64,000 nucleotides of DNA from NCBI GenBank assembly GCA_051047955.1, contig JBPGPT010000006.1:1-64000 (forward strand). The letters are read 5' to 3'. The position numbers were made by a program, and so were the translations under genes. Of the stretch, positions 11,017 to 16,393 are shown in pieces (position 1 is the first letter of the stretch; each line of letters begins with the position of its first letter). The notes below the pieces were generated by a model, which worked only from the letters and a program-made list of their open reading frames with translations, was not told the DNA's origin and ran no database searches. Source of the DNA: Cystobasidiomycetes sp. EMM_F5. Taxonomy: Eukaryota.

Positions 11017-11482
11017 CTACCGGACCTGCCTGTCCAGCAAATCTTTTGCCTCGTTGATCTTTGACGACAAGTAGGGCGAACCGCCTCTGTCTGGATGGTT
11101 TGCAAGCATAATCTTTCGGTGTGCGTCCTTTATTTTATTCTTTGTCAGATCTCGTTCCCTGCGGTTGGCGAGGTCAGTCTATGAAGGAATATCACTTCAC
11201 CACAATCAAAGATACCCACCTCAGTCCCAATATCGTCGCCGCTTCCTTTCTGTCCATCTTTGCCTGGAATCCTCCTACAATCCATTCCTGCCCGTTTGGC
11301 GCTTTTCCGAGCCTGCTGCTACCCGCTACGCCCGCACCACCGCTGCTTCCGCTGACGTTTCCAGCGATACTCTGCATCAGCGGCGATAGTCTTGCCCCGT
11401 TTCTCGCAGCCGTTCTCAGTGAAGCTCTCGCTGCGACTCCGACGCCCAACAGGGCTCCAGTAGCGAGCAGGAGGGTGGTCAT
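11017..11482 (-). CDS. PAM18: Mitochondrial import motor J-protein Pam18/Tim14
   Basis: [18 protein letters not shown], then after one intron [34 protein letters not shown]. Confidence 0.95.
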
Positions 11483-12084
11483 TTGTGATATCGATAGTGG
11501 ATGTAATTTATGCTCGTTGTCTTTGAAGTCGGTACTCGTCTTGTCGTCGTCTTTGTCGAATTAGAACAAAGCCAACCCTAGTTTGTCCTGGAATCGCAAT
11601 TCAAAGCTCTTCGTCATTGTTGGGTTCAGACTCGGAAGAACATCCTGCAAACTGCGCTGAACTCTGCAAATACTGGGTAATATACTGCTCAGTCAGTAGC
11701 CTCAGCTCAGACTAGCCAGGTCACCGCCAGACTGTGCGACAGGTTATCCAAGTCACCGTACAATTTTGACGAGAGAAAGAACGGCGGGCAAGGCTGTTTA
11801 GCTGCGAACCGGGCAGCTGGAATACACCAAATACGCTCATTGATATCGTAGACACCCGCCCAGCCTCGCCAGTTTACTGCAGCCAATTGATGCCGGGTGT
11901 TTTCGCGTGAAGACTTTCGAGCCGGGTGGACGCGAAACTGCTGTTGGGCTACGTGCAAGCAAGACTGGTACTGCTCAGAAGCTGAATACAGGATCAAGAA
12001 CGACAGAACCGCATAACCCAGGTCCGGCTTGGAGATTGCTCGGTCCGTTTGCCCACCGAAAGAATCTCCAATTTGTCGTAAAAC

Positions 12085-15000
12085 ATGGATCCGACAATTG
12101 AAGCTTTCGTGCCCTCCCGTGGGCGAATGCTGCACGGCGAGGGTAGCAGTACATTTGCACCGCACGTCCGCAGCGATCTCGACCCTTCAACATCGGCGTT
12201 TGTACCGGCAAACGGTACACCGCACCAGCAGTTATGGGCTTCTCCTCAATTAAATGGCACCGAATTCTATCCAAATGCGGCACCCTTTGCATACCCGCCT
12301 AATGGCTTTCAGATTCCAAACGGTGCTCCTGTGTCGTACGTGGAAGGCCAGCCGTTTGTGGGTGAAAATCAACATCCTGCTGCACACTCGCAGAAGAGAT
12401 CGCACGGTTCCAGTCAAGGTCGCTCGCAATCTGTACCTGGAGGTAGTTCAGCGCATCCGCGAGGCGGAGGATCAAACGGACGTGCGTACATCTCTGCTGT
12501 ACCTCGCGCGTGCATCTAGCTAAATATTCCTTTTCACGCCGATACAGGTGGCCGAGGAGCGAGTCGCGGTGGACGAGGTCGCGGAGGAGCACACGGGCCT
12601 CCTTCGTCCCATGCGCGAAAGTATGGAGGAGATGACGCTTTCCACAATACAGAGCCCAAAAAATCGGCGCCAGAAATTTCACTAGATTCAATCGCAGATT
12701 TCCCTGCTCTTGGACCGAGTCCACCTACTTCGAACAAAGCGACCTTCTCTCCGACTCTACCGATCACAAAGGTTTCATCGACAAGCAATGACGGCAATGA
12801 AGAGCCGTCGCATTCTGGCGAAGAACCTTCCCCTGTCAGTCAAGAGAAACCCGCCGCGGCACCATCAGCAACCCCAACATCTCCGAAGTCTCAAAAGAAG
12901 CCCGTCCTATCATTCGCTCGAGTAGTCGCGCCCGTCCCACCTCCACAACCACAAACAGTGGTCTCATCTACTGCAAAGTCTGCTTCCTCCAGTACGGACC
13001 CTACTCCCTCTACCTCGTCAGCAGTACACACCGCTCCATCGAAACCAGGTCGGATCGGCGAGCGAACCAGCTCAGGCTCTTCAACGTCCGCTTCTACCAC
13101 TCCCTCGACATTATCCCACTCTTCCGATTCGAAACCGGCTTCTCGCGCACCTTCATCAACATCGTACCACAATTCTGGAAATCGCAGTCCGATAGACCGC
13201 TCAAATGCAAGCGAACCATTCGCACAGCAGCATCACAAACCGAGACGAGCGTCCGCTCATGCACCCTCTCGCCGGTCAGAGTATCCGTATCAGCAAGGAC
13301 CACAACAACTGCCGTATGGGATCGAGCCCCAGTACTGGTCTGTTCCTCAGCCGCCAGTCCAGTCAGGCCTCTCTGCAGTCCAAGCCGAATTTCTGCGTAC
13401 GAACGGGTTTGCCGTTGAAGGTCTCGATATGTCGGCCCTTGATCCTGCTGCGCCTTTGCACGATAATGTCCCAGAAGGTAGTATTGACGTTATGCAATTA
13501 CCCGGGTATCACAATCCGCAGCCGACACACGAACCAGGCTACCAACCCAGAGTCCCGAAAGGTAGCAATGGCCATCTTAATGGTGATCACAACCAGCCTA
13601 TGCCCAACAAGAAGGACCAAGCGAAAAGGAATCGTCAGATGCAACGAGAACAAGAGCAGTATATGCACTGGTACAACAATCAATCACAGAATGGAGTGCC
13701 GTCACAGCAGGAGACCGAGGCAGCGCGGTCGTCTGGAATGTCGAAATCTCTGTCTGCTGGATCATTCAACCCAGATGCACCTGCCTTTGTGCCTACATGG
13801 GCAGCAGCTAAGCCTGTCTTGCCGGAAGCGACAGCAGCAGGCAATCAGAACACGACAGAGGAGCACAGCAAGGAAGAAGCTCCGCAACATGATACTGCAT
13901 CTGCAATCACCGCACAATCAGAACAGGACGCCGGGACGACCGATGATACTGCAATAGCTATGCACACGATTCCTGCGGTCGCAAGTACGGCGGAGACGTC
14001 AGAAACTAATATTTCAGAGCCAGTTCCAGAAGAACAGCAAACTGAAGATACGAAGTCTTCAGCGGCACCTCCAAGTATTGAAAACGGTACGACGCAGGAT
14101 GAATCGGACACGCCTGCAGAGGAGAGTATCAAAAGTGAAGAGCAGTCTGACGAACAAAGTCTTCAAACTGCGAGTCAAGTGGATATCGCAACGCATGCCG
14201 ATCCTGCAGGCGGGGCTGCCGAGCTGCCAGAAGACCAACCAGATAACAAGCAAGATGCGCTGCTAGCCGTACCTGAACGCAGCGATGCTGTTGCAGCCTG
14301 CGAAGAGAACATTGACCCGGAAGACGCGCCGTCAGTCGTCGAGGCTGTAGCTAGCACCGTCTCCACCGCGGCTGCCACTGTATCGGATACAGTCGCACAT
14401 GCTGTCGCACCGATAGTCGAGACACTATTGCCGAACGCGGCTTCGCAAGACGTCGGCGACGAGGAAGCCGAAAGTGATATAAATATCGACCAACCTCAAG
14501 GCGACGTTGCGGCGGAGTCAACACTTTCCGCCGAACCCGCTGAACCCGCTGCGAGAGATCCCGCAGTGTCAAGATCTACAGAAGAGGAAGACTCCAGTCC
14601 GGCATGCACGGAGGAGTCCACAAGCGAACCTGGCCACAAGGAGCAGTTGACATCCGAGGAACCTATTCCTGCCGATGACACCATTGCAGCTGAGTCGCAA
14701 CCGCACTCGACATTTTCGCTGCTTCCGCCAGTCACCGTGGCCGATGTGTTGGACAAGGCGAAGGAGTACGTAAGCGATATCGTAGCTGCCGTACAGCCTG
14801 CTGCAGAATCAACGGATGAAGACTCGTCTGCGGACAGCATTGGGGCCGTCGATAGAGTCGGAGCTGGAGCAGGCGTTGACGCTGAACATACTAAGGCGGA
14901 ATTGGATGAGCTAGACTTGTCGGAAGGAACCACTGCTGGGCATGAGGCGTCTCCGTTGGAGTCCGCGCTAGGGGATGAGGTCGACAAGCAAAGCTCAGAC

Positions 15001-16393
15001 GTTCGAAGTTCGCCAGTAATGCCCGATGCCTCGCAAGAGGTAGGAACAGATGATGCTTCACACATTAAAGATGTCTCTGCGTCGTCGACAATTTCTGCTT
15101 CCAGCATTGACAGCGAGACTGCTCAGCATTCTCTTACTCCAAGCGAAGTCGAGAAGGTGCTAATTCGCCAAAATGAGGTAGAAACAGGACGAGACGTCTT
15201 GGAAGCAGAATTGGCTCGAGCTGAGCCGCCTGTGAAGCAAGCCGAAGACTATTCCAAGACGGTCGAGCCCCATCCATCTGGAGAAACCACCGAAAACACT
15301 GCGGGAGATGCAGCGCCAGACTCTACAAGTGCTATTCAGATAGTTCTGTCTTCCTTCGACCGATGCTCGTCCGACGGCCAAAATGACTTCCTGTCCACTG
15401 TGCCGAAAGACGGACGCTCATCCCCTTCGCTGGTGTCTGAGACTTCTGCAGATGATGTGGAAGAAAGGCGATTTGAGCGGTCTTCTGCACCTTCACCGCC
15501 AGTCCTGCCAGTCGACGTGCAACTGCAAGGTGCACCTAGTGAATCATCGACGTCTTTCCTGCCACGATTATCGTTGGCACATCCGCAGGGGGCAGATGAG
15601 ATGGAATCGTTACCGTCGCCAGCGTCGTCTGTCAATCTCACCGCACCACCGGAACTTTCCCGGCGCGCCAGTATGGAAGAAAAGGAGGCAGCCATCAGAC
15701 TTGTTCAAGAGTTGCGGTCCGAGCCTCCCACACCGAAGGCTACTGATTACAGCGACGCCGGCGTTGGCGCTGCTCAGGATCCGCAAGCTACGCCGATATT
15801 TGACATGGCTAGCGTACTGCGCGACCTGCAGGCATCAAAACGTAAACGATCAGGGAAAGAGGTTGATCGCAACGATGACACTCCCATGGAACCTGAACCC
15901 AAAAAGGAGCGGCCAAGCGCTGAAGGCGACGACCCGAAGAAGCCTGCGCAGGGAGACGCACCTTCCCTGACGCTAAGCATTTTATCTGGCAGTATAGTTC
16001 CCCGGAAGCAGCTGGTCCTCTCTATCTTAGCGAGTCTCGGTATCAACTTCCTCCTTCCATTTGTCAATGGAGTCATGTTGGGTGAGTTTGATTGTTTCGA
16101 TCTTCAGCCAGATACGCTTACACTTGCATTCGTCTTGTCATACAGGCTTCGGCGAGATTTTCGCTCGCGATTGGCTGGGCCCCTTCTTTGGTTTTGTATC
16201 GTCACGCAATGCATCTACCGTCCAACAGAATCAAACTTCGTCAAGTTTCAGCTCGAGTAGCCTTGGTTTACGCGGAGCTGGGCGTACTACACCCAACCAG
16301 CGCGGCGGCGCGCAAGACGTACCAGGCCATGCAGCTGCCAAAACTGCACTTGAAGCCGCAACTGAGGGCGCCATCAAGCTTGCAGAGTCGTAA
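12085..16393 (+). CDS. MIM1: 1392-aa protein: PAM2-like motifs, RGG box, long acidic low-complexity region and C-terminal Mim1/Tom13 domain
   Basis: Exons 12085-12481, 12548-16081 and 16146-16393 join without stops. The C-terminus reads ILASLGINFLLPFVNGVMLGFGEIFARDW (Mim1 signature INxxLPFxNGxMLGFGE). PAM2-like motifs: MDPTIEAFVP, LDPSTSAFVP, FNPDAPAFVP. Confidence 0.75.

Follow-up and report, generated by a model that had tools for sequence, protein, structure and literature searches.

A long form of Mim1 carrying a PAM2 motif in a cystobasidiomycete: a candidate link between polyadenylated mRNPs and the mitochondrial surface

Gene structure and splicing

The window analysed here is a stretch of 64,000 nucleotides from Cystobasidiomycetes sp. 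EMM_F5 (contig JBPGPT010000006.1), and all the features described lie on its forward (+) strand. Between positions 12085 and 16393 it holds a single, genuine three-exon gene predicted to encode a 1392-residue long form of the mitochondrial outer-membrane insertase subunit Mim1. Exon 1 (12085-12481; aa 1-132 plus one base) begins at an ATG immediately preceded by an in-frame TAA, and its N-terminus aligns with that of a 1382-aa "hypothetical protein" of Cystobasidium minutum (P0012), for which the NCBI/JGI model is full length. The exon 1 frame meets a stop at 12517-12519, within intron 1 (12482-12547; 66 nt, GT...AG). Exon 2 (12548-16081; aa 133-1311 with a partial codon at each end), for which homologues were found, is contained in an open frame that runs for 1246 codons without a stop (12520-16260), a length far above chance at 52% G+C. 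Intron 2 (16082-16145; 64 nt, GT...AG) divides the region of the Mim1 membrane helix, and exon 3 (16146-16393) supplies aa 1311-1392 and the stop codon at 16391-16393. After removal of both introns the spliced sequence comprises 4179 nt, that is, 1392 codons and the stop.

Both splice junctions are supported because the model is colinear with the annotated C. minutum orthologue and because, in many relatives, the frame terminates shortly after the membrane helix, at the same place as intron 2. The spliced model and P0012 align end to end over both junctions with 38% identity (457 of 1191 aligned positions), the junction at intron 1 being colinear in the two proteins. At the position of intron 2, P0012, P0006 and the closest metagenomic relative (L001) continue through without a break, and L001 is 61.6% identical to the spliced model over 112 aa across this junction. 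The coordinates and the two introns proposed in an earlier sequence-only reading were all reproduced, together with the 1392-codon frame, and its claim of one gene agrees with the colinear orthologue and with the long relatives, in every one of which a single unbroken frame joins the PAM2 region to the membrane helix, leaving a supposed separate upstream gene without a stop codon.

The Mim1 membrane domain

The transmembrane segment (16012-16165; aa 1288-1311, split by intron 2) was recognized both by hydropathy and by the Pfam family TOM13, and the complete Mim1 signature, which straddles the same intron, extends over aa 1288-1317. It is the only hydrophobic segment of the protein: in a 19-residue Kyte-Doolittle scan the maximum of 1.95 falls at aa 1288, the next best value elsewhere is 1.17, and spans scoring above 1.6 begin solely at aa 1287-1293. 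A GxxxG motif (aa 1307-1311) and a GxxxA motif (aa 1313-1317) occupy columns that are invariant across 12 sequences. The curated cut-off of TOM13 (PF08219) is 25 bits, and the exon 2 part of the domain, scored alone as a contiguous piece, reaches 23.8 bits over profile positions 31-58 (28/84), just below it; in P0012 and L001, where the domain is contiguous and shares these residues across the junction, the scores are 44.8 and 43.8 bits. The cut-off is thus passed through the orthologues. The C-terminal Mim1 domain of the sequence-only reading is supported, and the unspliced open reading frame of the window carries a precomputed PF08219 label.

The helix is preceded by a conserved juxtamembrane block (15958-16011; aa 1270-1287), which lies within the TOM13 match and contains the invariant columns P1138-S1143 (A1 numbering), and is followed by a C-terminal tail of about 75 aa (16166-16390), in which a block at aa 1350-1378 is conserved and aligns with P0012, P0006, P0004 and L001. 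In yeast Mim1 the N-terminus is cytosolic, the C-terminus lies in the intermembrane space, and the membrane segment bears GxxxG(A) motifs. By analogy, the tail would be on the intermembrane-space side and, if the yeast topology holds, the approximately 1287 residues before the helix would face the cytosol as a mostly disordered arm. The long disordered N-terminal region noted earlier is supported, and would be cytosolic on the same condition.

PAM2 motifs of the arm

PAM2 has been described as a 12-residue motif with a hydrophobic residue at position 3, Asn or Ser at position 4, Pro, Val or Thr at position 5, an invariant Ala at position 7, an invariant Phe at position 10 and usually Pro at position 12 (PMC2854688, section 6). 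A canonical copy is found in the centre of the arm (13759-13794; aa 537-548), where positions 3, 4, 5, 7, 10 and 12 all conform and Ala takes the place of the preferred Glu at position 9. Pfam PAM2 (PF07145) is the best family for this central segment, with 19.2 bits and an E-value of 9.2e-4, below the cut-off of 20 bits; the cut-off was reached by no PAM2 match in the window or in the relatives tested. Two further PAM2-like motifs are degenerate, one at the extreme N-terminus (12085-12114; aa 1-10), with Ile at position 7 and Asp at position 4 and with a counterpart at the N-terminus of P0012, and the other at 12172-12207 (aa 30-41), with Thr at position 7 and Asp at position 4. Of the three PAM2 motifs that had been claimed, all lie where they were placed and the third is canonical, but the two exon 1 copies are devoid of the invariant Ala and gave no Pfam PAM2 match at E up to 10.

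The PAM2 cluster recurs among related proteins. It was found at the equivalent place in nine of the 12 open reading frames of at least 558 aa, against 0.006-0.018 (about 0.01) expected per protein from 5000 shuffles, the counting pattern being of the ELM type and not drawn from a tool; in the other three (P0007, P0020 and P0013) it is absent from the available part of the gene. In the alignment the cluster is conserved over columns 715-775, with a triple motif at the consensus level in A1, amid an otherwise fast-evolving disordered region. Pfam PAM2 matches at E up to 10 were obtained for five of eight sequences tested, the scores in four relatives being 18.1, 15.0, 12.5 and 9.6 bits, with none in three others. 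Among the metagenomic relatives, L001 has near-motifs only, with His at position 4, and the PAM2-type motifs of L016, L005 and L011 end in Phe instead of Pro at position 12; none of these four gave a Pfam PAM2 match at E up to 1. Since 0/11 sequences contain a PAM2L or GWW motif, the central motif is, on sequence grounds, of the Pab1 type and not of the Rrm4 type.

Other regions of the arm

The first zone of the arm is a basic head rich in Ser, Thr and Pro. It includes an RGG/RG tract (12460-12588; aa 126-146) that straddles intron 1 and aligns with P0012, each of the two proteins having seven RG dipeptides in its first 200 residues; the RGG tract described earlier is accordingly present, as an RG-rich tract. 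Two short blocks of no assigned role follow (aa 178-188 and 253-264, within 12682-12942), which are conserved in P0012, have similar blocks in P0019, P0010, L016 and L005, and correspond to no Pfam family. Another conserved block (13366-13428; aa 406-426; alignment columns 481-600) has Pfam matches at chance level only.

The canonical PAM2 motif lies in the second of three zones, and downstream of it the third zone, an acidic low-complexity region of 620 residues (13831-15690; aa 561-1180) has a pI of 4.05 and 21% Asp plus Glu, and matched nothing in Pfam or the PDB. Short conserved blocks are embedded in it, at aa 851-870, 913-924, 992-1001, 1062-1072 and 1110-1116. The block at aa 1062-1072 (15334-15366) is an 11-residue, Cys-terminated motif; nine of 13 sequences carry between one and three copies of it, and the expectation from shuffled sequences does not exceed 0.0015 per protein. 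Its opening four residues resemble, in relatives, the core of Atg8-interacting motifs (aromatic-x-x-Leu/Ile/Val), eight of the nine carriers having at least one copy that begins with Phe, Tyr or Trp; the copy in the window protein has Ile first (aa 1062-1065) and so departs from this core. Further along the arm lies a stretch of near-invariant columns (15676-15849), comprising a block at aa 1176-1195, read as a helix, and then a basic patch at aa 1229-1233.

Distribution of the long form

The length of Mim1 relatives ranges from less than 100 aa to 1382 aa, and thirteen longer TOM13 proteins were found, ten of them with at least 638 aa. Among 77 metagenomic Mim1 loci, five are long, with an upstream frame of at least 600 aa, and 72 are short; the PAM2 pattern occurs in four of the five long loci and in none of the remaining 72. 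The C. minutum protein P0012 shows the same layout as the window protein. These comparisons, together with the counts given above for the longer open reading frames, indicate that the long form of Mim1 is conserved in several basidiomycete-like lineages and is not a one-off fusion. The sequence-only reading had regarded the fusion as singular; the form recurs in relatives, and the C. minutum copy is already held at NCBI as a hypothetical protein. The Mim1 relative encoded at another locus (L002) bears a cytosolic enzyme domain of an unrelated kind, an N-terminal glutamine amidase.

Possible functions of the arm

The motifs suggest that the arm may present short linear motifs at the mitochondrial surface and so act as a scaffold there. 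Poly(A)-binding protein (PABP) would be docked, through its MLLE domain, by one or more of the PAM2 motifs, the two degenerate copies of the head (at the N-terminus and at aa 30-41) might complement the canonical one, the RG tract may contribute contacts to RNA, and polyadenylated mRNPs would be kept beside the MIM/TOM import machinery. Docking of PABP by the arm is plausible from its motifs, and from the same motifs we infer that PABP-bound mRNA may be held there for local co-translational insertion. The whole reading, a long Mim1 whose cytosolic scaffold arm docks PABP through PAM2 and so holds mRNPs near MIM/TOM, is the one tentatively preferred, at a little short of an even chance. Against it stand the PAM2 scores below the Pfam cut-off, the single canonical motif retained by the window protein, the absence of PAM2 from the available part of three of the 12 longer open reading frames, the deviating motifs of L001, L016, L005 and L011, and the 72 of 77 Mim1 loci that are without such an arm. 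Moreover, Upa1 and Upa2 can function without their PAM2 motifs, even though these bind Pab1, which means that the presence of the motif is no proof of a role.

A more far-reaching version is doubtful. In it, Mim1 of some basidiomycete lineages would be a 150-kDa receptor for mRNA tails, combining PAM2-PABP docking with RG-RNA contact, so that mRNAs for outer-membrane and import proteins would be translated at the insertion machine; the helix would then serve as a modular anchor, bearing the PABP arm in the window protein, the glutamine amidase in L002 and possibly an autophagy motif.

It is also conceivable, although unlikely, that the arm scaffolds something other than PABP and that its likeness to PAM2 is incidental or secondary. 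The foremost candidate is then a selective-autophagy (mitophagy) receptor or an organelle tether built on Mim1. The 11-residue motif would fit such a role, through its recurrence, the aromatic start seen in most of its carriers, and a core of aromatic-x-x-Ile/Val followed by Ser and acidic residues. In fission yeast, the Mim1-Mim2 complex keeps the mitophagy receptor Atg43 at the outer membrane, and trypanosome pATOM36 unites an insertase role and a tethering role in one factor. The enzyme domain of the L002 protein points the same way, suggesting that the Mim1 helix serves as a general anchor. However, the window copy of the motif begins with Ile, the 11-residue pattern was defined post hoc, after the data had been seen, and the four-residue Atg8-type core is very common among proteins; a mitophagy or tethering role also leaves the conservation of the PAM2 cluster and the RG tract unexplained.

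Somewhat less probable still is that PABP is bound for a purpose other than co-translational insertion, be it storage or silencing of mRNPs, coupling to mRNP granules or to endosomal mRNA transport, or sensing of cytosolic translation to tune import. The motif evidence is that given for the preferred reading; in addition, the ligands that carry PAM2 include not only activators but also repressors and decay factors, and Pucciniomycotina possess the core proteins of endosomal mRNA transport. A link of the Rrm4 type is opposed by the lack of PAM2L or GWW in the 11 sequences already mentioned, and nothing in the sequence separates storage, coupling or sensing from local translation.

Finally, it is very improbable that a promoter or start codon within the gene, near 15.8 kb, yields a short Mim1 as the functional product, with the upstream frame separate, non-functional or irrelevant to Mim1 function: yeast Mim1 has only 113 aa, its conserved membrane segment is reportedly sufficient for function, and an ATG does occur at 15805, 69 codons ahead of the helix, but neither the window nor any long relative has a stop between arm and helix, the linker is conserved without a break in the alignments, the C. 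minutum model is full length, the 159-187 residues leading up to the helix are devoid of Met in three of 12 relatives, and the column of the ATG, which had been put forward as a possible separate start, holds Met in only one of ten aligned sequences.

Comparison with known systems and significance

The protein shares with Mim1 of Saccharomyces cerevisiae and other fungi (Tom13, PF08219) the helix family, the juxtamembrane block, the GxxxG/GxxxA motifs and a single-pass arrangement. It departs from the small size of the yeast protein (113 aa, about 13 kDa), having 1392 aa, of which some 1287 precede the helix as an arm with RG, PAM2 and other conserved motifs. Upa1 and Upa2 of Ustilago maydis, scaffolds of endosomal mRNA transport, are likewise large, mostly disordered basidiomycete proteins bearing several PAM2 motifs, and Upa1 also couples PAM2 to a membrane anchor. 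Here one canonical and two degenerate copies are present, with the mitochondrial Mim1 helix as the anchor in place of a FYVE domain or a GWW motif; a C-terminal GWW of the Upa2 type is absent from 11 of 11 sequences.

In its proposed role the protein would resemble several outer-membrane proteins that hold mRNAs at the mitochondrial surface. AKAP1/MDI-Larp is one such anchor. SYNJ2BP-SYNJ2, OM14-NAC and Tom20 are further outer-membrane anchors for mRNAs or translating ribosomes, described in a recent review (PMC12852828). Within what these sources describe, the present protein differs from all four in that its anchor is a subunit of an insertase, and from the latter three in that they have no PAM2 on the anchor itself, while in the present case a single polypeptide is both the anchor and the candidate ligand of PABP. 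In Schizosaccharomyces pombe, Atg43 is a cytosolic adaptor that binds Atg8 by a short motif and is held on mitochondria via Mim1-Mim2, but it is a separate protein, whereas the candidate adaptor region described here lies within Mim1 and the window copy of its motif has no aromatic residue. The pATOM36 protein of Trypanosoma brucei likewise adds a structural role to its work in outer-membrane biogenesis. Its sequence is unrelated to that of Mim1, and the additional role is in genome segregation and does not concern mRNA.

A literature search found no published description of a Mim1 and PAM2 architecture. The long, PAM2-bearing form appears to be a previously undescribed variant of Mim1, of which the C. 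minutum sequence was itself already available at NCBI. How fungi retain mRNAs at the mitochondrial surface is understood only in part; the recent review names Tom20, OM14-NAC and, from animals, SYNJ2BP as anchors (PMC12852828). If the preferred reading is correct, an insertase subunit with a conserved PABP-docking motif built into it would tie poly(A) mRNPs physically to the insertion of outer-membrane proteins, in a direct way that is easy to test. Mim1 can no longer be regarded as uniformly tiny, and its cytosolic N-terminus appears as a site to which evolution has attached large additions, which could help to explain differences between lineages in mitochondrial biogenesis; the long forms provide natural constructs for dissecting roles of the MIM complex beyond insertion.

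Gene model and genomic setting

The long Mim1 gene opens on the forward strand with an ATG at 12085, immediately preceded by an in-frame TAA, in a frame that ends at a stop codon at 12517-12519, inside intron 1 (12482-12547, 66 nt, GT...AG). The second exon lies in a frame that stays free of stops over 1246 codons (12520-16260), and intron 2 (16082-16145, 64 nt, GT...AG) joins this exon to the last exon, in which frame reading places the stop codon at 16391-16393. Joined by their coordinates, the three exons (12085-12481, 12548-16081 and 16146-16393) amount to 4179 nt, or 1392 codons plus the stop. Both introns and the 1392-codon frame had been proposed in the sequence-only reading; they are borne out by this joining and by alignment with P0012, an annotated eukaryotic protein of 1382 aa ("hypothetical protein P389DRAFT_169070") from Cystobasidium minutum MCA 4210 (a non-pathogenic yeast of Pucciniomycotina, Cystobasidiomycetes), and the motif coordinates quoted in that reading all agree with an index ruler of the spliced protein. 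The window model and P0012 align all the way from the initial Met to the final block, with 457 of 1191 aligned positions identical and no break at either splice junction. P0012 has "fgenesh1_kg" in its source name, which we read as JGI's mark for models that had transcript-derived genes as seeds.

Used as the query of a word-index search, exon 2 matched the unspliced ORF of the window itself (P0001, 943 aa) together with ORFs of 915 aa and 1002 aa in other assemblies; each of the three has a precomputed label for TOM13, the Pfam family of Mim1 (PF08219). A query of the 92 residues that precede intron 2, run against longer proteins only, recovered 13 proteins, every one with TOM13 and 10 of them of at least 638 aa. 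The arm of P0012, meaning the residues before its membrane helix, recovered only its three close relatives in a search crowded by low-complexity candidates. Several relatives, which are raw ORF calls, end a few codons past one shared point in the membrane helix, as expected from an intron at that site; in P0012, P0006 and the metagenomic locus L001 the frame is continuous over the window's intron 2 site, and in P0004 the gene caller has translated intron 2 in frame. Chance as the origin of the open frame is ruled out by homology and by the 1246 stop-free codons in a window of 52% G+C, and an assembly or annotation chimera by independent assemblies with identical architecture.

Upstream and divergent from the gene, with the start regions about 0.55 kb apart, lies a two-exon gene on the reverse strand (11020-11560) whose product resembles the Pam18/Tim14-type J-proteins in the import motor of the inner membrane. 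Its 11192-11560 frame encodes a hydrophobic segment; an intron follows, and then part of a J-domain that includes an HPD motif (about 11020-11145); the Pfam scores for DnaJ (21.5 bits) and Pam16 (17.3 bits) are both under their cut-offs. With this neighbour, two mitochondrial import genes would share one promoter region of about 0.55 kb. Beyond it, upstream, is a PPR protein gene, and downstream an acyltransferase gene on the reverse strand converges on the long Mim1 gene.

Membrane domain and integrity of the protein

By its membrane domain the long protein belongs to the Mim1/TOM13 family. At the end of exon 2 Pfam TOM13 scores 21 bits with the whole exon and 23.8 bits with a 92-aa piece, below the cut-off of 25; this match covers only profile positions 31-58 of 84, the remainder being encoded by exon 3. 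Where the region is contiguous the family is recognized above the cut-off, with 44.8 bits in P0012, 43.8 in L001, 43.6 in L002 and 48.1 in L004 (the last three being metagenomic loci), and the Mim1 signature claimed from sequence is upheld by the scores of the orthologues P0012 and L001. The last 112 alignable residues of the model are 61.6% identical to L001. Hydropathy reveals one membrane segment (mean of 1.95 over 19 residues at aa 1288; best value elsewhere, 1.17), and a GxxxG at aa 1307-1311 and a GxxxA at aa 1313-1317 occupy invariant columns of a 12-sequence alignment. According to two papers (PMC13254594; PMC6010339), the Mim1 of yeast is 113 residues long (about 13 kDa), spans the outer membrane once with its N-terminus in the cytosol and its C-terminus in the intermembrane space, and oligomerizes through GxxxG. 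Compared with it the long Mim1 fails the trait of being a small protein, and by the same topology about 1287 of its residues would be cytosolic.

An arm encoded by a gene of its own would have to end in a stop codon; none is present ahead of the helix in the window or in any long relative, and in the alignments conservation extends through the linker. A rival explanation holds that a short isoform is the sole functional product. The internal ATG at 15805, considered previously as a separate Mim1 start, fares poorly in comparison with relatives: its column holds Met in one, Leu in eight and Ile in one of 10 aligned sequences, and 3 of 12 relatives lack a Met over the last 159-187 residues ahead of the helix. 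By sequence logic, arm and helix would form one protein, and a short Mim1 isoform may be made in addition.

A different partner of the helix is seen at L002 (15-1157, forward strand), where one 381-codon frame on a metagenome contig places a glutamine amidase domain (PF09764, 154 bits) N-terminal to the Mim1/TOM13 helix. The product would be an N-degron pathway enzyme anchored through a Mim1 membrane segment; P0025 is an apparent fragment of a fusion of this type. The arrangement suggests that the helix of Mim1 acts as a modular anchor in the outer membrane.

PAM2 motif

PAM2 (PF07145), the ligand motif for the MLLE domain that the poly(A)-binding protein PABP carries, has been defined by position (Kozlov and Gehring 2010, PMC2854688): hydrophobic at 3, Asn or more rarely Ser at 4, Pro, Val or Thr at 5, invariantly Ala at 7, preferably Glu at 9, invariantly Phe at 10 and usually Pro at 12. 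Three such motifs had been claimed. The central one (aa 537-548, nt 13759-13794) conforms to this definition, with positions 3, 4, 5, 7, 10 and 12 matched; the two in exon 1 match positions 3, 5, 10 and 12 and deviate at position 4 (Asp) and position 7 (Ile or Thr). PAM2 is likewise the best Pfam family for the central 24-aa segment (19.2 bits, E 9.2e-4; cut-off 20), and three exon 1 segments gave no Pfam match at E up to 10. Across eight sequences tested the profile was found in five (19.2, 18.1, 15.0, 12.5 and 9.6 bits) and not in the other three, so that none reached the 20-bit cut-off. At the aligned site PAM2 motifs are clustered in most relatives, three at most, as the majority consensus of the alignment of long relatives shows, and this conservation is a stronger argument for PAM2 than the Pfam score. 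The PAM2L code of Rrm4 ligands and the GWW motif of Upa2 were both absent from the 11 sequences searched, and the motif is of the Pab1 type.

For counting, a PAM2 pattern of the ELM type was used. At least one match occurred in 9 of 12 ORFs of at least 558 aa (P0007, P0020 and P0013 lacked it) and in none of six shorter proteins tested, the expectation from 5000 shuffles per protein being a mean of 0.006-0.018 matches. Four of the nine positive ORFs are close relatives of one another, leaving about six independent lineages. A looser pattern was composed after inspection of the data and is to be discounted.

Distribution of the long form

Scanned with the profile of long relatives, JGI metagenome contigs yielded 77 distinct Mim1 loci, in each of which the frame was extended upstream of the helix. 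At least 600 open codons were found in five (L001, L005, L006, L011 and L016; the L011 frame runs off the contig end), and 86-330 in the others, values that are lower bounds since upstream exons would escape. Four loci (L005, L006, L011 and L016) have the PAM2 pattern in their upstream frame; the other 73 lack it there. L001, the closest metagenomic relative of the window, contains two frame changes, shares the other conserved blocks and has two PAM2 near-motifs with His at position 4. L016, L005 and L011 constitute a third, divergent long-form lineage that keeps two N-terminal blocks, the long acidic region and the juxtamembrane block; their PAM2-like motif has Phe at position 12 followed by Val-Pro, and Pfam PAM2 at E up to 1 gave no match in them. 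A further divergent form, P0019 (838 aa), bears two near-motifs and one PAM2 pattern match near its N-terminus. Most Mim1 genes sampled are short, and in the agaricomycete Laetiporus sulphureus the annotated Mim1 (343 aa) is without PAM2. As to whether related basidiomycete Mim1 proteins carry PAM2, the motif recurs in most of the long forms, and the PAM2-bearing long form is, from these comparisons, old, conserved and confined to some lineages.

At the intron 2 site the frame is continuous in 72 of the 77 loci, the five exceptions being the L005/L016 group. That group and most long-form ORFs have either this intron, by which the Mim1 helix region is split, or a frame break in its place; L001, though of the long form, has no intron at the site.

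Organization of the arm

The whole protein has a pI of 4.65 and a GRAVY of -0.71. Residues 1-330 are basic (pI 9.5; 66% Ser/Thr/Pro/Ala/Gly/Gln/Glu) and residues 561-1180 acidic (pI 4.05; 21% Asp+Glu), and seven RG dipeptides occur in the first 200 residues of both the window protein and P0012. Pfam found no family in the arm beyond TOM13 and PAM2, and no credible match for five blocks conserved in the arm or tail; a PDB sequence search with a 40-aa PAM2 piece returned no match, a PDB search with the profile of long relatives only chance-level ones (E of at least 0.99), and the ESM Atlas no usable match to residues 1-640 of P0012. From the composition and the absence of domain and PDB matches we infer that the arm is disordered.

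In the 12-sequence alignment the arm consists of short, strongly conserved blocks alternating with variable spacers, the signature of a short-linear-motif scaffold. Two N-terminal blocks, aa 178-188 (12682-12714) and aa 253-264 (12907-12942), have no Pfam family and could represent a further docking site; both recur in three divergent long-form lineages (P0012; P0019/P0010; L016/L005). They are followed by a block of 21 residues before the PAM2 site (aa 406-426, 13366-13428), kept in most long forms (alignment columns 481-600) and of no known family, by the PAM2 site itself, and by blocks at aa 851-870, 913-924, 992-1001, 1062-1072 (15334-15366), 1110-1116 and 1176-1195, a basic patch at aa 1229-1233 and a juxtamembrane block at aa 1270-1287. 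The block at aa 1062-1072 is an 11-residue motif whose last residue is Cys; 9 of 13 family members carry it, with as many as three copies (P0012 aa 987, 1023 and 1051; L001 frame 3 aa 428), and in eight of the nine carriers at least one copy opens with an aromatic-x-Ile/Val-Ile/Val core, then Ser and acidic residues. Past the block at aa 851-870 the relatives have acidic segments of helical, amphipathic appearance (P0012 aa 809-845; P0011 aa 532-568; P0003 aa 477-513; P0019 aa 381-510), the window version being much shorter; these match the profiles of YtxH, apolipoprotein and ApoO weakly, with scores far under cut-off, and that they might bind membranes or lipid droplets is pure speculation.

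Proposed role

The best-supported reading is that long Mim1 would act as a scaffold on the mitochondrial surface and dock Pab1 through its PAM2 motif or motifs. A precedent is Upa2 of Ustilago maydis, and P0012 has the same layout as the window protein. Like Upa1 on endosomes, long Mim1 would combine a PAM2 adaptor with a membrane anchor; unlike the Upa proteins, it is without PAM2L, FYVE and GWW. The PAM2 motifs of Upa2 are dispensable for its function, so the presence of a motif is no proof of its importance, and PABP might also be bound by long Mim1 for a purpose other than local insertion.

Alternatively, the arm could be a scaffold of another kind, built on the Atg8-interacting-like motif at aa 1062-1072. 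This motif resembles an Atg8-interacting core in eight of nine carriers, and the Schizosaccharomyces pombe mitophagy receptor Atg43 is held by Mim1-Mim2 (PMC7609059); however, the window's copy begins with Ile and lacks the core.

Literature searches on Mim1 with PAM2 returned no relevant paper on a long or PAM2-bearing Mim1, though supplementary tables of the Ustilago PAM2 screens could list a relative; those on Mim1 in Basidiomycota gave nothing relevant, and those on PAM2 with the mitochondrial outer membrane no anchored PAM2 protein. A 2025 review of mRNA anchoring (PMC12852828) names only SYNJ2BP, Tom20 and OM14. The sequence-only reading knew of no description of this architecture, and none was found in these searches; the protein itself is already public as "hypothetical". 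The key step is PABP binding, here inferred from the motif: docked through the PAM2 motif or motifs of the arm, Pab1 would be held at the mitochondrial surface, where the RG tract may contribute RNA contacts.
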